Below, piece by piece: positions 1 through 7,843 of a stretch of DNA of 7,843 bases. The translations under genes and the position numbers were made by a program. Positions within the stretch are counted from its first letter, which is position 1; the number at the start of each line of letters is the position of its first letter. The notes under the pieces were generated by a model. That model was given only the letters and a program-made list of their open reading frames with translations, had not been told where the DNA came from and did not search any database. Source of the stretch: an uncultured archaeon (lineage in GTDB: Archaea; Iainarchaeota; Iainarchaeia; Iainarchaeales; CSSED10-239). The stretch lies in contig CAZPGO010000010.1 in assembly GCA_964586355.1 (NCBI GenBank), positions 1-7,843 of the forward strand, in the 5' to 3' direction.

Positions 1-75
1 ATTAAAGGAGAGACATATTTATATTTTTTAAACAAAAATTTTTTTCTTAATTTAGATCTGTTTTTTTTGGATAAC

Positions 76-99
76 ATAATAATAATAATAATAATAATA
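76..99. repeat. (ATA)8 trinucleotide microsatellite in an A-tract-rich intergenic region
   Basis: Read directly: eight perfect ATA units at 76..99. They are followed by A8 (120-127), A7 (129-135), A7 (158-164) and A8 (166-173) tracts upstream of the first CDS. Confidence 0.9.
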
Positions 100-145
100 T
101 ATAAAGATTACTAAAAACTAAAAAAAACAAAAAAACAAATAGAAA

Positions 146-160
146 AATATAAAATATAAA
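146..160 (+). promoter_or_regulatory. Candidate archaeal TATA-box region for the pilin-like operon
   Basis: The sequence 'tataaaatataaa' is centred about 25-28 nt upstream of the ATG at 177. This matches archaeal TATA spacing for a leaderless or near-leaderless mRNA. The AT-rich background makes this weak evidence. Confidence 0.25.
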
Positions 161-176
161 AAAACAAAAAAAACTT

Positions 177-362
177 ATGATTAAAAAAATAATTAAAGAA
201 GAATCAGCACAGATCTCTGCAGAAATGATTATTTTGCTTGCTGCAATAATTGCTATTGTCTTAGTAATTGTTACACAATTACAAAAAACAACAACCAAAG
301 CAAATAAAAGTGTGGAAAAAAGCTCTGATAAGGTTTTTGATAAAATAAATAAAATAGATTAA
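177..362 (+). CDS. Class III signal peptide (archaeal type IV pilin-like) small protein
   Basis: 61 aa. The N-terminus MIKKIIKEESAQISAEMIILLAAIIAIVLVIV has a short charged leader, a [GA]-Q-I-S-x-E motif and a hydrophobic helix. This is the archaeal prepilin/class III signal (DUF361-like QxSxE pattern). Its stop directly abuts the next ATG (taaATG at 360-365). Confidence 0.7.
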   Translation: MIKKIIKEESAQISAEMIILLAAIIAIVLVIVTQLQKTTTKANKSVEKSSDKVFDKINKID

Positions 363-761
363 ATGAAAAAAGGTTTTTTAAGTATAGAATATATTTTATT
401 AGTTGCAGCTGTTGTGTCTGCAATTAGTGTGCTGGTTACTTCTGGTATTGGAATATATACTAAAAACCTAAATGCTATTGATAACTATAAACTAGATTCT
501 TTTTCTGAAAATCTTCAAAATAACATCTATTTATTAGAACTTAACAGCAATTCTAAAAACTCTTTTGAAATAACAACCATAAATGAATGGACATTAAAAA
601 AAACTAATAAAAATTGCTTAAATATAGAAAACAAACAAAAAACAAAAACAATTTGCTCTTCTTATATTCTTAGCTATAATAGATCTACTATTACTGATTA
701 CTTAAAAATAACCCTAGAACATAAAAACAATACTATTTATTTATATTTTCAATCAAAATAA
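363..761 (+). CDS. Class III signal peptide (archaeal pilin-like) protein
   Basis: 132 aa. The N-terminus MKKGFLSIEYILLVAAVVSAISVLV has a KKG|F cleavage-like site, Glu at +5 and a hydrophobic helix. The rest is Asn/Thr/Ser-rich and looks extracellular. It is translationally abutted to the upstream pilin-like ORF. Confidence 0.65.
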   Translation: MKKGFLSIEYILLVAAVVSAISVLVTSGIGIYTKNLNAIDNYKLDSFSENLQNNIYLLELNSNSKNSFEITTINEWTLKKTNKNCLNIENKQKTKTICSSYILSYNRSTITDYLKITLEHKNNTIYLYFQSK

Positions 762-765
762 AAGT

Positions 766-1281
766 ATGGACACTAGTAAACTTGCACAATACATTTTATT
801 TCCAGGAATTATTTTTCACGAACTAGCTCATGCTTTTGCATGTGTGTTATTTAATGTACCTATTAAAAAAATAAAATGGGTTGGTAAGGATGGAGGGTAT
901 GTTATACATGAAAACTCTAAGTCATATAAGATCATTATTATTGCATTGTTCCCTTTTCTGTTTAATATTTTTATATCATTAATTTTTGCAAGAATCTTTC
1001 TTTTAAATGAGTTATTAGTTATAAAACTAGTTTCAGTTTGGTTAGCCTCTTCAGCTTTGTTTTTCTGTGTGCCTAGTGCACAAGATAACAATAATTGTAT
1101 TTCAACATTAAAGGAAAGCTATACAAAAAAACAAAGCTTTTTGGTGTTACTAATAAAGATCTTATTATTTCCAATACCCTTAACAATAATAACAATCTGT
1201 AATATTTTTAAATTTCTAGACAAATTTATATTATTTAGAGTGTTTTTAGTAGTTTTTTGGTTCTATTTGTTTATTATCTAA
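766..1281 (+). CDS. Multi-pass membrane protein with N-terminal HExxH motif (putative zincin-like membrane metallopeptidase, DUF3267-like)
   Basis: 171 aa. HELAH lies at aa 18-22 (nt 817..831), followed by about four hydrophobic segments. It starts 4 nt after the preceding stop, so it is in the same operon as the two pilin-like genes. The family assignment comes from motif and topology only. Confidence 0.55.
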   Translation: MDTSKLAQYILFPGIIFHELAHAFACVLFNVPIKKIKWVGKDGGYVIHENSKSYKIIIIALFPFLFNIFISLIFARIFLLNELLVIKLVSVWLASSALFFCVPSAQDNNNCISTLKESYTKKQSFLVLLIKILLFPIPLTIITICNIFKFLDKFILFRVFLVVFWFYLFII

Positions 1282-1358
1282 AATAATTATATTTAAATAG
1301 ATTCCTAAACAAAATATTATATACTATTAAACTCTTATTTTAAAAAAAGGAAAAAAAT

Positions 1359-1559
1359 ATGGACTTAACAAAATATGAAATAACCAGAATAATTGCTGCA
1401 AGAGCTCAACAGCTATCCTGTGGAGCACCAGCATTAGTAAAAACAAATAAAGAAAGTACAGCTTATAGTATATCTAGAGCAGAATTTGAGAATAAAAGTA
1501 TTCCTTTAGCAATTATAAGAAAAAACAATAATAAAAAAGAAATTATTTCAATAAATTAA
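1359..1559 (+). CDS. rpoK: DNA-directed RNA polymerase subunit K (Rpo6/RpoK, omega/Rpb6 family)
   Basis: 66 aa. LTKYEITRIIAARAQQLSCGAPALV matches the conserved Rpo6 core (LT+FE.ARIIG.RA.QLS.GAP.L). The size is typical for archaeal RpoK. Confidence 0.85.
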   Translation: MDLTKYEITRIIAARAQQLSCGAPALVKTNKESTAYSISRAEFENKSIPLAIIRKNNNKKEIISIN

Positions 1560-1573
1560 AAAGGTGTTAATAT

Positions 1574-1846
1574 ATGGGTAAGGCAATGTCTAACAAGATA
1601 AAAGCAAAAGCAAAAATACTATTAAATGAATTTAAATCAGATTTTGGCACAGATTTTACAAAAAACAAAGACTTTTTAAAAAGTATAAATTTACCATTAT
1701 CAAAATTAACTATTAACTTAATGTCTGGTTATATTACTAGATATATAAAAAATGAGAAAAAAGAGCAAGAAGCTTTAAAAATAAAAGTACAAGATAGTAA
1801 AGTAGTACCAACAAAAGCTCCAACAGACAAAACTATTTCTCACTAA
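1574..1846 (+). CDS. rps17e: 30S ribosomal protein eS17 (S17e)
   Basis: 90 aa. It starts MGK and carries the eS17 pattern ..K.KAK.LL.EF...FGTDFT.NKDFL..I.LP.SK.L.N.M.GYITRY.K (compare eukaryotic/archaeal eS17 'DF..NK......I.SKKLRN.IAGYVT'). An AGGTG Shine-Dalgarno sits at 1561-1565, 8 nt upstream of the ATG. Confidence 0.75.
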   Translation: MGKAMSNKIKAKAKILLNEFKSDFGTDFTKNKDFLKSINLPLSKLTINLMSGYITRYIKNEKKEQEALKIKVQDSKVVPTKAPTDKTISH

Positions 1847-1855
1847 TTTTTTTTT
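1847..1855 (+). terminator. Oligo-T (T9) tract immediately after the rps17e stop; candidate archaeal terminator
   Basis: T9 is read directly at 1847..1855, right after TAA 1844-1846. Archaeal RNAP terminates at oligo-T runs. The tract overlaps the stop codon of convergent pelota. Confidence 0.35.
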
Positions 1856-2879
1856 AAATATTTATTGCAAATCTCAAATTAGCAACAACTCCTGAAAAAG
1901 AATTTAGAGATCTGCTTATTTCGTGTTTTGAATCTACTATGTGTACCTTAGCATTTACTTTTTCTGCATTTTTTACAATTTCTTGAATTTCATTTAGATT
2001 TTCCTGCCAAAGTTTTTCAGAAACTAAAATTGTTTCAATAGCACCTATCTCTATTGCTGTTTTTATTTGCTTTAAACCATAAATTGCCTTATTATTATCT
2101 TTACCTAGATTCTCTAAAAAAAGATCAAATATTTTTTGCTCTTTATAAATTATTGAATTTTCAAAAAATTTAGAAACTTCCGGTTTTTTAAACAATTCAG
2201 AGATTGAAGATCTAGAAGTATTTTGAATATTTACTTCTAAAATCTCTTTTTTGATCTTTGGTTTTATAAAATCCACAAACTGTTTTTTTGTATACCCACA
2301 GCCAGCAACAATTATTGGAATATCTGTTGGAATTATTTTTTCTATATTTAAAAAATATTCCTTAATATTAAAATTAGAAGAATATCTTTTACCAGTTTTT
2401 CCTGAATTAATTGTTGCAACATCATTTACTCCAATATCACTTAATTTGTAAATATTTGCACATTCATCATCAAGCACAATAACCAAAACATTTGAATTTG
2501 TTTTAGAGGTTTTTTCTAATAGATCTATTTGGTGTTTAAAAAAAACTTCTTTTTTTAGAGTGTAGCTTTTATTTAATTGGACCTCTAATGTATGATAATC
2601 ACCAATAGGAGCAAACTCTAATGGTTTAGCATCAATAATTCTTCCAGTAAATCTTAAGGATTTTAAACTTTGTGAAAAATCATATTTTTCAATACAAATA
2701 TGAACAAAAACAGGTTTTCTTTCAGAATCGTTTGTTTCTTCAGCACCTTTTTGCCTTCTATAACTAAGCCCACTAACAACATCGTTAGTATTAGCTACTG
2801 TTTTTATAGCCCAAAGGTCTTCAATTGTTTGAGCAACAAACACTAGTTCTCCTTCTTTTGTTAATTTTATTATTTGCAT
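1854..2879 (-). CDS. pelA: mRNA surveillance / ribosome rescue protein Pelota (Dom34 homologue)
   Basis: 341 aa. The N-terminus (EGELVFVAQTIEDLWAIKTVANTNDVVSGLSYRR) matches the Pelota Sm-like domain. The central part has IIVAGCGYTKKQF. The C-terminal eRF1-domain-3-like segment is YGLKQIKTAIEIGAIETILVSEKL. There is no GGQ or NIKS motif, which argues against aRF1. Confidence 0.85.
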   Translation of the reverse strand: MQIIKLTKEGELVFVAQTIEDLWAIKTVANTNDVVSGLSYRRQKGAEETNDSERKPVFVHICIEKYDFSQSLKSLRFTGRIIDAKPLEFAPIGDYHTLEVQLNKSYTLKKEVFFKHQIDLLEKTSKTNSNVLVIVLDDECANIYKLSDIGVNDVATINSGKTGKRYSSNFNIKEYFLNIEKIIPTDIPIIVAGCGYTKKQFVDFIKPKIKKEILEVNIQNTSRSSISELFKKPEVSKFFENSIIYKEQKIFDLFLENLGKDNNKAIYGLKQIKTAIEIGAIETILVSEKLWQENLNEIQEIVKNAEKVNAKVHIVDSKHEISRSLNSFSGVVANLRFAINI

Positions 2880-2886
2880 ATTAAAC

Positions 2887-4419
2887 TCAGTCTAAAAGAT
2901 CTTCTTCCATATATGTTGGAACCTTAAGCTCAAGTATTTTTAGTATTGTTGGTGCAATATTTGCAATACTGTATTCTTTATCCATCTTTAAAGAATATTT
3001 ATCTTTAGAGAGGAGAATAAAAGGTACTTTGTTTAGGGTGTGAGAGGTGTTAATAGATCCGTCTTTATTAATCATCATATCACAGTTACCATGATCTGCA
3101 GTGATTATTAAAGTTGTTGTGTTTAGATCTACTTTTTTTAAAATCAAAGCTAAACACTGATCAATTGTTTTTAAGGCTTTTACTGCTGCTTTAATATTTC
3201 CCGTATGCCCCACCATATCTCCGTTTGCAAAGTTTACTAAAATAAACTTGTATTCTTTATTTATATTTTCTAATAACTTTTGAGTTATTATTTTTACAGA
3301 CATCTCTGGTTTTAGATCATAAGTTAAAACACCAGGAGAAGGCACTAATATTCTTGATTCTTTTTTGTTTGGTTTTTCTTGACCTAAATTAAAAAAATAA
3401 GTAACATGCGCAAACTTTTCTGTTTCTGCTAATCTCAATTGCCTATATCCTAGTTTAGAAATAATTTGTCCTAGACCTGGTTTTTGTTTTCCAGGAGGAA
3501 ACATTACTTTTAAATTTTTTAACTTTGAATCATATTCTGTTAAAGTAATAAAATTAACATTAATCTTTTTAGTATTAAAAACATCAAACCTTTTATCCAC
3601 AAACATTCTAGTAAACATTCTTGCACGATCGCTTCTAAAGTTAAAAAACAACATAGTATCATTATTTTTAATTAATGAAGAGGTATCAAACAAAGTAGGT
3701 TCTAAAAATTCATCTGTAATTTTTTTATTATAACTTTTTTCTATAAAATCTATTGGATCATCTTTACTTATAGAACCTTTACCACAAACCAAAAGATCAT
3801 AAACTTTTTTTAAACGATCCCAATGATTATCTCTATCCATTCCATAATATCTTCCAGAAATACTAGCAATAGACATTTTTTTTGTTTTTTTTGAGATTAA
3901 TTCCTCCAAGAAAGATTTTCCACTATGTGGATCTGTATCTCTTCCATCTGTAAAAAGATGAAGGTATATTTGAGAAATATTTTCATATTTTTTTAAAATA
4001 TTTAATATAGAATAAAATTGATCTTTATGAGAATGAACGCCACCATCACTTAACAAACCAACCAAATGAAGACTTTGATTACCTTTTATTTTTTTTAAGT
4101 TTTTTACTAAAACTTTGTTTTTTGCAAAAGCTCCTGTTTTTATTGCTTTGTTTATTCTTATAATTTCAGAATCAATTATTCTTCCAGCACCAAAAGTAGA
4201 ATGCCCAACTTCAGAAGAACCTATCTGTCCTTCAGGAAGCCCTACAAACTTTTCTGAAGCACCTAACTTTGTATAAGGATATTTCTTTTTTAAATTTTCA
4301 AGAGTATTCATTTCTGCAACACTAACAGCATTACCAGAATATGCTCTATTAACTCCAACGCCATCTAAGACTAACAAAACCACTTTATTTTTGTTTTTCA
4401 TATTTTCTCTTATTTTCAT
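2887..4419 (-). CDS. gpmI: 2,3-bisphosphoglycerate-independent phosphoglycerate mutase, bacterial-type (GpmI, about 510 aa)
   Basis: It has VLLVLDGVG near the N-terminus, the catalytic-Ser motif GSSEVGHSTFGAGRI, the metal-site motifs NFANGDMVGHTGN and ITADHGNCD, and the expected 510 aa length. The annotated start overlaps the priL 3' end by 35 nt. An alternative start at M7 (4401) would still overlap by 17 nt. Confidence 0.93.
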   Translation of the reverse strand: MKIRENMKNKNKVVLLVLDGVGVNRAYSGNAVSVAEMNTLENLKKKYPYTKLGASEKFVGLPEGQIGSSEVGHSTFGAGRIIDSEIIRINKAIKTGAFAKNKVLVKNLKKIKGNQSLHLVGLLSDGGVHSHKDQFYSILNILKKYENISQIYLHLFTDGRDTDPHSGKSFLEELISKKTKKMSIASISGRYYGMDRDNHWDRLKKVYDLLVCGKGSISKDDPIDFIEKSYNKKITDEFLEPTLFDTSSLIKNNDTMLFFNFRSDRARMFTRMFVDKRFDVFNTKKINVNFITLTEYDSKLKNLKVMFPPGKQKPGLGQIISKLGYRQLRLAETEKFAHVTYFFNLGQEKPNKKESRILVPSPGVLTYDLKPEMSVKIITQKLLENINKEYKFILVNFANGDMVGHTGNIKAAVKALKTIDQCLALILKKVDLNTTTLIITADHGNCDMMINKDGSINTSHTLNKVPFILLSKDKYSLKMDKEYSIANIAPTILKILELKVPTYMEEDLLD

Positions 4420-5395
4420 TTTTATTTGTTAATAATTGCAAAGGATGTTTTACCTTACAATCTTTTACACATAATCCATTTGATTTTAGATTACTACAGT
4501 TTGCTACAGAATACTGTTTTTCAATAATCTTTTTTATTTGATATCCTGCAATCTTTTCATCAAAGTTTGGTAAATTTTTATAAATATGTAAAATCTCATC
4601 ATAGTCATATCCAACATTACTTAAAAAAACAGCAAAGTGAAAGTTTGCTATATGAGACAATTTTCTTCTGGCTAAAAGATCATTATATAATTTTGCAAAG
4701 CAAGGTGGAAATTCTTCTTCTTTTGGTTTATTAATGGATTGAAAGGACATACTTGCCTTTGCATCAGAAAAATACTTTTTTTTTATATCTTCTGAGTATG
4801 ATAAAAATATTTTAGGTATTTCTTTTTTATTTATTTCTGTGGTTCTTAATATTCTTTTTTTTAAAACTACTGAAACAAAATCAATAAGTTCTTTAGAATT
4901 ATTAAAATAGATCTTTCCGTTATTTAGATTAGAATATTGTAATTTATAATCATCTCCTAAGTCTAAAGACAAAAGATCTATTAAATCTATAAAATAACTC
5001 TCTTCTTTTTTCAGATTTGGAGTTAGATCACTTAAGATCTCTTCAATTTCATCATATTTACTGTCTTCAAAAGCCTTTTGTAAAAAATATCTTAGTTGTG
5101 CTTGATAGTAGTTAGCTAGTGATTGATTTATTGGGCTATAGTCAATAATTGAAAGAAAGATTTTAGACAAAGGATAGATGCTTACATATACCTTTGCTTC
5201 CAATTCATAATTTTTTTTAAGATCTTTATACCACTCTTTTTCTCTATTTAAATCTAAGATTGTAACTGTTAAAAAATATTTTGCTTTTTCTAATAATTTT
5301 TCTTCAACAGAGAAAAGATCTAGATTTTGGGTATCTAGATATTCTTTTGCTTTTTTTGAGAAGGGGTATTTTATTAGATAATTGTAATTAAACAT
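4385..5395 (-). CDS. priL: DNA primase large (regulatory) subunit PriL
   Basis: 336 aa. It has a YPFSKKAKEYL-type N-terminus. The C-terminal Fe-S domain pattern is PPCFAKLYNDLLARRKLSHIANFHFAVFLSNVGYDYDEI ... YSVANCSNLKSNGLCVKDC, with Cys residues positioned as in archaeal/eukaryotic PriL. Confidence 0.85.
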   Translation of the reverse strand: MFNYNYLIKYPFSKKAKEYLDTQNLDLFSVEEKLLEKAKYFLTVTILDLNREKEWYKDLKKNYELEAKVYVSIYPLSKIFLSIIDYSPINQSLANYYQAQLRYFLQKAFEDSKYDEIEEILSDLTPNLKKEESYFIDLIDLLSLDLGDDYKLQYSNLNNGKIYFNNSKELIDFVSVVLKKRILRTTEINKKEIPKIFLSYSEDIKKKYFSDAKASMSFQSINKPKEEEFPPCFAKLYNDLLARRKLSHIANFHFAVFLSNVGYDYDEILHIYKNLPNFDEKIAGYQIKKIIEKQYSVANCSNLKSNGLCVKDCKVKHPLQLLTNKNENKRKYEKQK

Positions 5396-5499
5396 AAATA
5401 TATATAAGAAGTAAAGAAATAAAAATCTCTTTGTTTTTAAGAAAAGTAATCATCAATAGTTATTATTAAATAAGGTCAGCAAAATAAAATATTTAACTC

Positions 5500-5512
5500 A
5501 AAAAATCAAAAA
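5500..5512 (-). terminator. T5-GA-T6 oligo-T tracts just downstream of the RT stop (- strand); candidate archaeal terminator
   Basis: The - strand reads taa-tatg-ttttt-ga-tttttt immediately after the RT stop at 5521-5523. This is a sequence-only call in an AT-rich background. Confidence 0.3.
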
Positions 5513-5520
5513 CATATTAA

Positions 5521-6576
5521 TTAAAATTTACAAAAATCTTTTTGTAATTTATTCTTTAGTTTAATACAATCAGCATGTTTAAGATATCCAAAAAAACTAT
5601 TAATTGATGATTCTAATGATGATCTGGTCAATTTTTTCGTATTATATTTAATTAATAGCTTTTTTGTTCTTTTCTTAAATCTTTTTATATTAATAGATCT
5701 TACTCTCACAAAATCAGGATAAATTTGATAACCAACAAAATCAACACCTGTTTTAGTTAGTCTAATTTTTGCTTTATTTATTGGTAGATCTAATTTTAAT
5801 TCTTTATTTAAATATTTACGAATAATTTCTTTAGACATATGCAATTCTTTTTTAGAATCAGAAAAAATTAAAAAATCATCTACATATCTAAAGTAATGTT
5901 TAATTTTTAGTTTGTTTTTCACAAATTGATCTAATTCATTTAAATAAATATTAGAAAACAATTGGGAAGTTAAATTGCCTATTGGTATTCCTTTCTTAGC
6001 TCCAAATTCTGAATGGTCGCTATCAATTATTTTAAAAATAACTGTTAATAGCTTTTTATCTTTTATTTTCTTAGAAATTATTTTTTTTAAAATATCTTGA
6101 TCTATACTTAGAAAATACTTTTTAATATCACATTTTAAAAAATATTTGGGTGGATTTTTGCTTTGAATAATTTTTTTTAATCTAAATAATCCTTTGTGTA
6201 TACCTTTGTTTTTCCTACAAGCATAAGAATCATAAATAAAAGATTTTTCAAAAATAGGTTCAATTATCTTTTGGATTGCATGATGAAGTACTCTATCTTT
6301 AAAGGACACAAACTTTATTGTTCGTTCTTTTGGTTTGTATATTTTAAATGTAGAATAAGGTCCAAAAACATAATTATTTGTGATTAATTCTTTTTGTAAA
6401 GAAAACAACTCTTTTTCATAATTAAAAAAATAATTAGTTATTTCAAAAGATCTTGGTTTTGATTTTTTTGCCAAAATATATGCATTATATAAATTATTAA
6501 AAGATATAAATTTTTGCCAAAGATTATTGTATGATTTCATAATAAAACTTACTTTGCAAAAAATGATTTTCGCCAT
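5521..6576 (-). CDS. Diversity-generating retroelement reverse transcriptase (Brt-like)
   Basis: The RT domains are colinear with Bordetella phage Brt. They are NLYNAY..AKKSK, YKPKERTI.FVSFKDRVLHHA, YACRKNKGIHKG, KCDIKKYF.SI, the DGR-diagnostic IGNLTSQ (nt 5962..5982) and the catalytic YVDD (nt 5875..5886). The compact size (about 340 aa) has no maturase or endonuclease domains. The true start is more likely M13 (ATG at 6540, MKSYNNLWQKF...) than the first ATG at 6576. Confidence 0.93.
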   Translation of the reverse strand: MAKIIFCKVSFIMKSYNNLWQKFISFNNLYNAYILAKKSKPRSFEITNYFFNYEKELFSLQKELITNNYVFGPYSTFKIYKPKERTIKFVSFKDRVLHHAIQKIIEPIFEKSFIYDSYACRKNKGIHKGLFRLKKIIQSKNPPKYFLKCDIKKYFLSIDQDILKKIISKKIKDKKLLTVIFKIIDSDHSEFGAKKGIPIGNLTSQLFSNIYLNELDQFVKNKLKIKHYFRYVDDFLIFSDSKKELHMSKEIIRKYLNKELKLDLPINKAKIRLTKTGVDFVGYQIYPDFVRVRSINIKRFKKRTKKLLIKYNTKKLTRSSLESSINSFFGYLKHADCIKLKNKLQKDFCKF

Positions 6577-6775
6577 TCCGAAAAGCTACTAACCATTTTT
6601 TACAAAGATTTTTTGTTTTTGCGGTATCTCTTTTTACATACTATAAAAAGGCAATTTATTAGCTACCGAAGAAATTATCAGATGTAGTTCTTTTTACAAC
6701 AAATATTGTATGTCCTTAAACATACAAAACCCCGACAATTCCAATTTGCAAACCAAATTTTTTGGATAAAGACTA

Positions 6776-6900
6776 CTATGCGCACCGAAACCCGATGTTA
6801 TAGTTCTGGTTACTTGTCCCGTTGTTCAAGTTCAAGGCTAAAAGACCTGTGTTAGTTCCATTGTTCCAATTGCCACCGCGCAGAAACTAAAGACTTGAAA
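6776..6900 (-). repeat. DGR template repeat (TR), non-coding; boundaries approximate because no VR is available to align
   Basis: The - strand 6886..6779 reads ttt ctg cgc ggt ggc aat tgg aac aat gga act aac aca ggt ctt tta gcc ttg aac ttg aac aac ggg aca agt aac cag aac tat aac atc ggg ttt cgg tgc gca. This translates to FLRGGNWNNGTNTGLLALNLNNGTSNQNYNIGFRCA. It is flanked in frame by TAG on both sides (6887-6889 and 6776-6778). There are ten AAY codons. RGG.W....GFRC is the C-type-lectin/FGE-fold DGR variable-region signature. The segment is a local GC island in an AT-rich window. Confidence 0.85.
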
Positions 6901-6972
6901 AACAGCAAAATACCGATAATCCCTCGTTCTTTAAAGAACCAATTATAAAAAAGAACAAAAACTTTAAATAGT

Positions 6973-7314
6973 TTACTTTATAGAAAATTTAGAAATTAAT
7001 CCACCAACTAATTGTCCAATCTTAGAGATTTTTTTTTCAGCAGTTTCATATTTTTTAAAATCAATTATTTTTAAATCTTTTGATATTCTTACTAAAATTC
7101 TTAATTTTTCTAAATTAATATCTGCTTCTCTTAAATAAACTTCTTTATTATAATTTTTATTTGCACAAACTAAATTTTCTATTAATAATAGATTAAGATC
7201 TTCTAATCTCTTACCAATAACTGATTTTTTTGTTTTTGGAAATTTATCTATAACATTATTTAACCACAAAAAAAGATCATAAGCTTCTTTAAATGCTTTT
7301 AAATCTTGATACAT
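6973..7314 (-). CDS. avd: Accessory variability determinant (Avd-like four-helix-bundle protein)
   Basis: 113 aa, predicted all-helical and basic. AYDLFLWLNNVIDKFPKTKKSVIGKRLEDL...EKLRILVRIS...KKYETAEKKISKIGQLVGGLI parallels Bordetella bAvd (..FPK/IPRKHG.., ..LAMLRFWLR.., ..ETAQVLIAEVGRILGSWI). It sits immediately upstream of the TR and RT. Confidence 0.8.
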   Translation of the reverse strand: MYQDLKAFKEAYDLFLWLNNVIDKFPKTKKSVIGKRLEDLNLLLIENLVCANKNYNKEVYLREADINLEKLRILVRISKDLKIIDFKKYETAEKKISKIGQLVGGLISKFSIK

Positions 7315-7329
7315 GTAAATAACACAATT

Positions 7330-7707
7330 TTATTTTTTATCCATTTTTTTAATAATACTATTTATATATTTTAAACAACCATCTAAATTATTTATTTGTT
7401 CTATAACAATTGCTTTTTCAAAAATATTTAAATCAATAAAAAATAACAAATTAGATTGCGCAGAAGATAAGTTGTTTCTAGCTGATTTATAAAACTCCAC
7501 TTTTTTCTTTTTATCAAATTCATTATAACCATTTGATAAATTTGATAATATTGATAATAACTTTAATTTTGTATCTGTTAATAAATAAAGGTGTTCTTGA
7601 GAAGCAGTATTTAATAAAAGAATAATTTTAGAAATTATTGGAAAAGATTCTTTATAAGCTAATAGATTTACAAAACCTTTCTTAAAAAAATAACTTTCTG
7701 ATTCCAT
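7330..7707 (-). CDS. Second four-helix-bundle protein (TIGR02436 / 23S-rRNA-IVS-protein-like, Avd superfamily)
   Basis: 125 aa. The pattern LLAYKESFPIISKII...LLSILSNLSNGYNEFDKKKKVEFYKSARNNLSSAQSNLLFFIDLNIF...LDGCLKYINSIIKK mirrors the four-helix-bundle family consensus (..SI.SNIAEG..R...K....F..IA.GSL.E....L.LA..L.Y.......L...I.K.L..L). It lies 15 nt upstream of avd on the same strand. Confidence 0.6.
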   Translation of the reverse strand: MESESYFFKKGFVNLLAYKESFPIISKIILLLNTASQEHLYLLTDTKLKLLSILSNLSNGYNEFDKKKKVEFYKSARNNLSSAQSNLLFFIDLNIFEKAIVIEQINNLDGCLKYINSIIKKMDKK

Positions 7708-7729
7708 GTTTTGATCAATTTTAAATTAT

Positions 7730-7740
7730 TGTTTATAGGG
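7730..7740 (-). promoter_or_regulatory. Candidate TATA box for the DGR operon (leaderless-type spacing)
   Basis: The - strand has 'ctataaac' with tataaa at 7737..7732. It is centred about 28 nt upstream of the ATG at 7707, the expected archaeal TATA-to-TSS distance if the mRNA is leaderless. Confidence 0.35.
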
Positions 7741-7744
7741 GGTG

Positions 7745-7775
7745 AAAAAAATTTGACCTTGCCTTAGGCAAGGTC
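7745..7775 (-). terminator. Perfect 9-bp GC-rich hairpin followed by T7 (- strand); terminator of the upstream - strand gene
   Basis: The - strand reads gaccttgcc-taa-ggcaaggtc-aaa-ttttttt. The stem arms are 7755-7763 and 7767-7775 and the T7 is 7751..7745. It begins 1 nt after the stop of the partial ORF ending at 7777. Confidence 0.5.
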
Positions 7776-7776
7776 T

Positions 7777-7843
7777 TTACCAAAGATAGACAGATAGCAG
7801 ATAATCTCCTAGCAGAATAACATATATTATTTGGAGATTAAAT
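7777..7843 (-). CDS. Possible 3' end of a - strand gene running off the right edge (hydrophobic C-terminus)
   Basis: This is the only frame open to the window edge. It reads ...FNLQIIYVILLGDYLLSVYLW* with stop TAA at 7779..7777, immediately followed by the hairpin and T7. With only 21 codons, the support is weak. Confidence 0.3.
   Translation of the reverse strand, partial: FNLQIIYVILLGDYLLSVYLW

Follow-up and report, generated by a model that had tools for sequence, protein, structure and literature searches.

A stretch of 7,843 nucleotides from an uncultured archaeon (contig CAZPGO010000010.1, positions 1 to 7,843 of the forward strand), which at its full length we call the window, holds all but the first gene of a cassette that reads on the minus strand, in order, target gene, hairpin, AvdL, Avd, template repeat (TR), a spacer of about 240 nt and reverse transcriptase (RT). 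We are highly confident that window positions 6887..6779 on the minus strand are the TR of a chromosomal diversity-generating retroelement (DGR) of a low-GC archaeon of DPANN type. The RT protein is encoded by eight public contigs, of which three (L001-L003) hold the entire window with 0 differences and extend beyond its right-hand (3') edge on the plus strand, and on these contigs the 451-aa target gene ends 10 nt past the window edge. The same order of target, AvdL, Avd, TR plus spacer and RT is found in four more archaeal loci (L010, L090, L093 and L094), and L090 comes from a complete genome of 839,632 bp (CP045477.1).

The template repeat

The TR (6779..6887, minus strand) is 109 nt long and untranslated, as judged from its homology to the variable repeat (VR) of the target gene and from the stop codons that flank it. 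Read from 6886 to 6779, it translates to FLRGGNWNNGTNTGLLALNLNNGTSNQNYNIGFRCA. The initial annotation of this DNA had taken the region for the template of a DGR and not for a gene, and the VR copy, the adenine-restricted mismatches and the DGR-type RT and Avd next to it all bear this out. Its counts were reproduced exactly, with adenine at 32 of 108 nt, 27 of them at codon positions 1 and 2 (15 and 12, with 5 at position 3), and with ten AAY codons (8 AAC and 2 AAT). The frame is closed, as had been said, by TAG before (6889-6887) and by TAG TAG after (6778-6773), and as possible starts it offers two TTG codons in frame but neither ATG nor GTG. The repeat had also been called the only marked GC island in the window, and its GC content is indeed 46% vs 24% for the window, whose highest-GC 108-nt stretches begin at 6773-6782. 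The extent had to be corrected: the TR lies inside the interval first given (6776..6900), but homology with the VR covers only 6887..6779, beginning with the G of the TAG that precedes the frame and stopping at the A behind GCGC. A further prediction was that, should the TR run 5' across this TAG, the VR copy would have its A substituted. That A is a T in the VR (GTG), but the base before it differs too (T vs G), and thus the difference is merely the 5' edge of the homology.

Adenines occur in 18 variable codons of the TR, none of which can become a stop codon by adenine substitution, and about 1.9e16 peptides can be encoded in this way; this arrangement of adenines is not due to chance. At its 3' end the TR has a GC-rich, adenine-poor block, ATCGGGTTTCGGTGCGC (6780..6796, minus strand), which is the same in TR and VR and by analogy with the Bordetella phage BPP-1 (PMC4372165, PMC5758913) may act as the initiation of mutagenic homing site of the VR (IMH) and its TR counterpart (IMH*). 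After the common GC-rich block ATCGGGTTTCGGTGCGCA the repeats diverge, with a 2-nt indel included, so that directly after GCGCA the TR reads TAGTAGTCTTTATCC vs GTAGTTCCTTAATTT in the VR. A shared block followed by divergence is also seen when the TR of the related contig L007 is compared with the VRs of L005 and L006, and in L090, L093 and L094 the TR/VR homology continues through CAGTAGTTT. The L007 TR is identical to the window TR at 105 of 108 positions while their RTs are only 84% identical, and thus the TR is more tightly constrained than the enzyme that copies it. The three differences (positions 43, 58 and 70) are none of them at an adenine.

The variable repeat and its adenine-restricted changes

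A VR copy was sought within the window and none was found, only AT-rich chance repeats. The VR is at L001 5961-6069, 24 nt past the right-hand (3') edge of the window on the plus strand, and it was invisible to the initial annotation because it sits just beyond the window. On the coding strand it lies 1087 nt upstream of the TR (L001 7048-7156), and it makes up codons 413-448 of the 451 codons of the target, that is, 36 codons at the 3' end of the gene. A homologous repeat of this kind, differing from the TR at adenines, had been proposed from the TR side, and both the repeat and the pattern were found.

The L001 VR differs from the TR at 14 positions, 13 of which are TR adenines. In the cluster of target proteins at 90% identity there are six sequences with three VR peptides, and the DNA was recovered for all three alleles. 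Mismatches with the TR fall at adenines in 13/14, 13/13 and 13/13 cases for these natural alleles (hypergeometric p 1e-7 to 1e-8), and taken together the alleles replace 23 of the 32 TR adenines. The four related cassettes show the same bias, with 18/18 (L010), 12/14 (L090), 20/20 (L093) and 16/16 (L094) mismatches at adenines. Between L001 and L008 only 18 of 4452 aligned bases differ, all of them inside the VR, in a span of 74 nt, and therefore diversification is more recent than any background mutation. The TR sequence is constant in all contigs that carry it (L001-L004). We conclude that the VR variation is localised, one-way, adenine-specific hypermutation, and the DGR is evidently intact and active.

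The reverse transcriptase

The RT gene (5521..6540, minus strand) matches RVT_1 (E 2.7e-25) and the Bordetella phage enzyme bRT, and its motif IGNLTSQ fits the DGR signature [I/V/L]GxxxSQ (PMC7826257). The best match in the PDB is 8ub7_A, bRT itself (E 8.8e-50), and the best group II intron RT follows at 3e-22; in the fold-search library, chain A of 8ub7 is the RT of the DGR ribonucleoprotein and chain B is Avd. By alignment, the protein retains the catalytic YVDD and the counterparts of bRT F66, R74, I76, I181, G182 and Q187. Two of these residues, R74 and I181, favour mutagenesis at adenines by bRT (PMC7826257). In a scan against NCBIfam, which has no DGR-RT model, all RT models were below cut-off. 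The open reading frame (ORF) may open at 6576 (MAKIIFCKVSFI...), but the orthologues in L007 and L010 begin at the Met equivalent to 6540 (MKSYNNLW), and thus the first 12 codons of the longer frame are probably spacer RNA and the RT is probably 339 aa long.

Avd and a second Avd-fold protein

Avd (accessory variability determinant; 6973..7314, minus strand) is a protein of 113 aa with a pI of 9.5 that scores 85.3 bits against the NCBIfam equivalog DivGenRetAVD (cut-off 80) and 73 bits against Pfam bAvd (cut-off 40). Its profile finds only a weak match among PDB sequences, 4dwl (E 0.04). An avd accessory gene is found in 74% of DGRs (PMC5758913).

Upstream of Avd on the coding strand is a second small basic protein, AvdL (7330..7707, minus strand; 125 aa, pI 9.2), which we interpret as a divergent four-helix bundle of the Avd fold. 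It is above the cut-off of TIGR02436 (25.8 bits; cut-off 24), below that of Pfam 23S_rRNA_IVP (29.4 bits; cut-off 33.8), and has no match to the DivGenRetAVD and bAvd models. A sequence search of the PDB with AvdL gave nothing significant. An AlphaFold 2 (AF2) model built from database homologues has four helices, with a mean predicted local distance difference test (pLDDT) of 88.5, and in Foldseek this model reaches TM-scores of 0.76-0.90 to BPP-1 Avd (4dwl, 8ub7) and 0.66-0.88, mostly 0.74-0.88, to proteins of the S23/IVS family (23S-IVS). BLASTP and profile-profile comparison of AvdL with Avd show no sequence homology (hhalign probability 2%). By the model, fold alone links the two proteins, and they are not recent duplicates.

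AvdL is at the same cassette position in L007, L005, L010, L090, L093 and L094. Relatives have a pI of 7.7-9.0 vs 9.2 in the window. The Avd/AvdL pair is kept in L010, whose RT is 68% identical, and in L090, L093 and L094, whose targets are 46-49% identical.

The target protein

The fold check on the target agrees with the C-type-lectin or FGE-like domain that had been predicted from the TR. The protein scores 30.8 bits against Pfam FGE-sulfatase (cut-off 23.3), and its AlphaFold model (65 homologues; pLDDT 89) has as its best Foldseek matches the DGR variable proteins TaqVP and Mtd and then formylglycine-generating enzymes (FGEs), with TvpA at rank 49 (E 6.6e-3). Sequence entropy in the target family is highest at the codons that are AAY in the TR. 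There are about 100 full-length homologues, mostly from archaeal metagenome-assembled genomes (MAGs) labelled 'archaeon' or Candidatus Iainarchaeum ('ainarchaeum').

The N-terminus of the family, with the consensus K[KR][SAG]-[IV]SPLIATILLIVVAV...WGK, resembles an archaeal class III (type IV pilin-like) signal, and in the AF2 model residues 17-52 form a long helix. The match to Pfam Pilin_N is below cut-off (17.8 bits vs 25.2), only 11 of 65 family members match it at E<0.01, and every match to archaeal pilin hidden Markov models was under cut-off. PDB matches to the N-terminus are weak (8rey_M, E 0.06; 8fk7_A, E 0.6). Some target homologues are labelled 'flagellin-like protein' by JGI, and bacterial relatives carry the N_methyl (PF07963) pilin motif.

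At the other end of the window, two ORFs on the plus strand (177-362, 61 aa; 363-761, 132 aa) have weak matches to Class III signal peptides (E about 1e-3) and N-termini of the QISAE/LSIEY type, and may be pilin-like. The adjoining ORF (766-1281, plus strand) encodes a 171-aa membrane protein with a HELAH motif and weak Peptidase_M50 matches. On contig L095 (Ga0247841_10002546, 4001-9386) the target has a 461-aa homologue that stands without a neighbouring Avd, TR or RT and is followed instead by phage-like genes (HNH, portal); thus the lectin-tipped protein family occurs in a virus-like context too.

Conserved RNA structure around the template repeat

We aligned the spacer, from the 3' end of the TR to the start of the RT, in six cassettes of three lineages and derived a consensus structure with RNAalifold. 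Two blocks, AGTAGT and ACTACATCTG, are invariant in all six. In the consensus, 92% of cells are paired vs 44-57% when the partners are slid, two-sided changes affect eight pairs vs 0-2 in those slid controls, and the pairing and covariation observed were matched by 0 of 500 shuffles.

The structure contains two spacer hairpins. P1 (6740..6766, minus strand) has four of eight pairs changed on both sides, in helices 2 and 3, and its position matches that of the Avd-binding stem-loops reported just downstream of the TR (bioRxiv 10.1101/2023.10.23.563531), which makes it a candidate Avd-binding stem-loop. P2 (6704..6729, minus strand), UUUUGUAUGU-UUAAGG-ACAUACAAUA, has 11 pairs, three of them compensatory (for example, G:C in the window vs A:U in L007), and 92% of its cells are paired.

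Both hairpins are enclosed by a helix that spans about 100 nt of spacer. Its proposed template strand, GUAGUCUUU (6768..6776, minus strand), is directly 3' of the TR and pairs with AAAGAACUAC (6693..6684), which is part of a proposed primer strand that runs from AAAGAACUAC into the invariant block ACUACAUCUG (6679..6693, minus strand). In the Bordetella phage DGR RNA, TR117-129 pairs with Sp47-56 and self-priming starts from Sp A56 (PMC6182149; bioRxiv 10.1101/2023.10.23.563531), and by analogy the 6776-6768/6693-6684 duplex would have a priming role here.

A second, long-range duplex brackets the TR. Its 3' strand, CUGAUAAUUUCU (6670..6681, minus strand), forms 12 bp with 6924..6913, and its 5' strand, AGGGAUUAUCGG (6913..6924, minus strand), is 25 nt upstream of the TR; the duplex is equalled by 0 of 1000 shuffles. 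Every cassette has such a duplex, in which the 12 nt that follow ACUACAU find their partner in a segment lying 10-25 nt 5' of the TR, and the sequences are specific to each lineage: GGUGUUUUUUAG with CUAGAAGACAUC in L010, and GGGCUUUUACAG with CUGUAAAAUGUU in L090, L093 and L094, where one base of the 3' strand is bulged. Across the three lineages, 0-12 of 1000 dinucleotide shuffles do as well. The phage RNA has a stem-loop just after the TR that binds Avd and a 'cPRT Stop' duplex that joins sequences upstream and downstream of the TR (PMC6182149; bioRxiv 10.1101/2023.10.23.563531), and our long-range duplex appears to parallel the latter. Directly 5' of the long-range strand is a palindromic hairpin, GUUCUUUAAAGAAC (6926..6939, minus strand), whose stem is conserved while its loop varies (L010, L090, L093, L094).

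A further pairing, CGGUAU upstream of the TR with AUACCG in the spacer, was dropped when inspection of the alignment showed an uncompensated G-to-A change on the upstream side in L007. Scans of the window with Rfam at gathering thresholds and for tRNAs found nothing.

A hairpin downstream of the variable repeat

A GC-rich hairpin, GACCUUGCC-UAA-GGCAAGGUC (7755..7775, minus strand), followed by a T-run, lies in the interval that separates AvdL from the target gene, some 90 nt beyond the VR. It is the sole terminator-like site in 6400-7843, where 0.2 would be expected. Across relatives this hairpin has a 9-bp GC-rich stem 81-110 nt past the VR, with loops TAA, TTC, GAA and GTAA. L005 and L006 keep it with a compensatory A:T-to-G:C change, and a conserved block precedes it; the L010 version has the GTAA loop and no T-run. 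The hairpin could be a terminator or a retrohoming hairpin; the former may hold because a T-run follows in the window. Downstream of the VR, a GC-rich inverted repeat is present in only 34% of DGRs (PMC5758913).

In L090, at about 5410-5450, and at the equivalent places in L093 and L094, four tandem 8-nt units of the form GACGGnnn (GACGGGTGAGACGGCAAGACGGCCAGACGG) stand in place of the hairpin.

Genomic setting and related contigs

The genes that flank the cassette are archaeal housekeeping genes (primase large subunit, iPGM, Pelota, S17e and Rpb6). For the primase large subunit, too, the closest relatives that have a name belong to MAGs labelled Iainarchaeum, which NCBI puts in the kingdom Nanobdellati (DPANN). 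The host is a DPANN-like archaeon of 24% GC, and the DGR is chromosomal. We rejected a phage or provirus origin of the locus because its neighbours are archaeal housekeeping genes, and megablast of the cassette against phage records gave 0 matches. A pattern scan for the TR/VR anchor found no match in the GTDB species-representative genomes and only three contigs in the JGI metagenome collection.

The window ends (position 7843, plus strand) no more than 3 nt from the end of L004 (position 1), an independent contig from another sample, and both ends are 23-25 nt 3' of the VR. Such paired contig ends near the VR are what heterogeneity of the VR in the population would do to an assembler.

Two related contigs have unusual arrangements. 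L005 (Ga0265294_10046000, reverse orientation, about 1180-3632) resembles the window locus, at 71-92% identity, throughout the genes for target, AvdL and Avd and the intergenic DNA as far as the TAG that precedes the TR. Beginning at the first base of the repeat it carries another TR (FLRGGNWNNETNAGVLNLNANNNPSNTNNNIGFRCVVV), another spacer and an RT that is only 51% identical, and its VR matches the TR of the window/L007 type, not its local TR. Either the TR-spacer-RT module was swapped, with the break where the TR begins on its 5' side, or the assembly is chimeric. In L012 (Pacearchaeota MAG JAVHOF010000190.1, 245-2437), Avd, TR and RT are inside one unbroken ORF of 730 codons; either translation runs on across the TR to give a fused Avd-RT protein, or stop codons are absent by chance.

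Alternative explanations

The TR is a non-coding, stop-closed copy of the 3' end of a gene, and such a copy might be an ordinary duplicated fragment or pseudogene of a lectin-fold gene, changing by normal mutation and having no template function. Adenine makes up 29% of the repeat, however, and takes nearly all of the differences in each of the three alleles; change is one-sided, with the TR invariant across contigs while the VR varies; the TR lies between Avd and a DGR-type RT in every relative; and it is almost unchanged in a strain (L007) whose RT has diverged far more. The VR alleles and the comparison of L001 with L008 refute this explanation in practice, and we consider it extremely improbable. 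Another proposal is that the TR stretch is translated, as a small peptide from an in-frame TTG or by read-through, and acts as a protein. The two TTG codons would permit it, but the longest possible ORF is under 20 codons and went unlisted at a minimum of 40 aa, the in-frame TAG directly upstream and the double TAG downstream close the frame, and conservation runs into the non-coding spacer as RNA helices and not as codons. We give translation next to no credence.

A genuine DGR that is decaying or dormant, with retrohoming stopped or very rare and the VR alleles old, is harder to set aside, and several observations weigh against an intact, active element or against parts of its RNA model. The commonest VR allele ('a') has one of its 14 mismatches off adenine, a T-to-C change (T59C), as expected of an aged allele, and it is unchanged in at least four assemblies (L001, L002, L003 and the proteins P0004 and P0006). 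P0006 has eight amino-acid substitutions outside the VR. VR turnover may be slow, given this recurrent allele and its T-to-C change. In the RNA, the five GUAGU:ACUAC core pairs are invariant in the six cassettes and are thus conserved but not proven to pair; the covariation set is six sequences from three lineages only; and, taken as a whole, the intergenic RNA (396 nt) does not surpass its shuffles in folding (z -0.23), for which reason the evidence for structure was taken from the comparative analysis. The post-VR hairpin, finally, stands about 90 nt from the VR and is not adjacent to it as in BPP-1. Dormancy has to contend with L008, which has another VR allele and no other difference in 4452 nt, with intact ORFs for RT, Avd and AvdL and an RT that keeps its catalytic and signature motifs, with a TR that keeps its 32 adenines in stop-proof codons, and with RNA helices maintained by compensatory changes. 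We judge a dormant DGR to be improbable and retain the reading of an active one.

Proposed mechanism and significance

Starting from the TR/VR pair with its adenine-restricted differences and allelic diversification, from the families and folds of the RT, Avd and target, and from the conservation and covariation of the RNA helices, all of which the data show, we propose a cycle by analogy with BPP-1, from which its cDNA synthesis, self-priming, priming site, homing, helix roles, IMH function and direction of transfer are taken. Transcription would yield an RNA that covers the Avd-TR intergenic region, the TR and the spacer, and this RNA would be folded about its two hairpins by the long-range duplex (6924-6913/6681-6670) and the TR-proximal duplex (6776-6768/6693-6684). 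The RT with Avd would self-prime from the spacer near the invariant ACUACAU block and copy the TR into cDNA, faithfully except opposite adenines. The cDNA would then replace the homologous VR, the 36-codon repeat at the 3' end of the target gene, so that up to 18 codons (about 2e16 peptides) could be recoded on the ligand-binding face of the C-type-lectin/FGE-fold domain with no stop codons created. The TR would be spared because it is untranslated and because its sequence departs from that of the VR right after the GC-rich block (IMH* vs IMH).

The mechanism, target fold, accessory protein and host group all match published DGR biology. Three features are less usual, namely that a second Avd-fold gene is conserved, that the target begins with a pilin-like segment and that a conserved hairpin lies past the VR; the two-Avd architecture and the pilin-like target are modest variants. 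It is conceivable, though in our estimation rather unlikely, that the cassette family is a distinct DPANN subtype of DGR that needs two Avd-fold proteins unrelated in sequence, with AvdL binding P2 or the hairpin and block between target and AvdL, and with a target that is a type IV pilin-like subunit bearing a hypervariable lectin tip. If that were true, the element would let an episymbiont vary the adhesive tip of the pilus with which it takes hold of its hosts.

The locus is a complete archaeal DGR with natural evidence of activity, in the form of three VR alleles on DNA that is the same elsewhere. It leaves general knowledge of DGRs unchanged, and it suggests that the RNA scaffold of the Bordetella phage has recognisable, covarying counterparts in DPANN archaea, which supports a mechanism of reverse transcription conserved across domains. 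The second Avd-fold gene and the pilin-like target are leads on attachment-surface variation in ultra-small symbiotic archaea.

Comparison with known diversity-generating retroelements

The closest parallel is with BPP-1 (mtd-avd-TR-brt). Both have a target with a C-terminal VR, avd, TR, spacer and RT in the same order; the RTs, of 328-351 aa, can be aligned end to end (E 9e-50) and have in common the [I/V/L]GxxxSQ motif and the R74/I181 counterparts; Avd is a basic four-helix-bundle protein in each; and the VR is within a C-type-lectin fold. TR/VR differences are at adenines in both, here with one T-to-C exception, and AAY codons are dominant. The RNAs also appear to agree in three elements: a pairing of the TR 3' end with the spacer, a stem-loop that follows the TR closely and a duplex of upstream with downstream sequences (PMC6182149; bioRxiv 10.1101/2023.10.23.563531). 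Unlike BPP-1, which is a phage element, the present cassette is on an archaeal chromosome, and it has a second Avd-fold gene upstream of avd. Its spacer has an extra hairpin (P2), with the proposed primer strand about 100 nt after the TR vs about 50 nt in the phage; its GC hairpin is set apart from the VR, whereas that of BPP-1 is adjacent to IMH; and its target has a pilin-like N-terminal helix and is not a tail fibre. Two avd genes were found in one of 372 DGRs surveyed (Wu et al. 2018, PMC5758913). That DGR and ours are alike in having two Avd-fold genes per cassette, but here the pair is without detectable sequence homology.

According to PMC6349945, which cites Paul 2015, Paul 2017 and Handa 2016, DGRs are prevalent in DPANN lineages, and those of Nanoarchaeota, Pacearchaeota and Woesearchaeota resemble ours in their uncultured, low-GC archaeal hosts with small genomes, in their C-type-lectin-fold targets with adenine-specific TR/VR differences, and in the small basic Avd-like ORFs between target and RT (Paul et al. 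2015, PMC4372165). They differ in that our cassette has its closest named relatives in MAGs labelled Candidatus Iainarchaeum or 'archaeon', and in Nanoarchaeota DGRs the hairpin is within the target gene and has GRA loops (PMC4372165), whereas here it is intergenic with TAA, TTC, GAA or GTAA loops.

Among variable proteins, TaqVP of the Thermus aquaticus DGR (PDB 5VF4) is both the best PDB sequence match to target residues 400-450 (E 2.5e-4) and the best fold match to the target (Foldseek E 3e-10, probability 1.0). The two have in common the VR-encoded strand-loop motif ..RGG.W..G...G...L...... G.R (PMC6328139). Their overall identity is only about 19%, and the TM-score is 0.34-0.41 because the N-terminal domains differ, TaqVP being without the pilin-like N-terminal helix.

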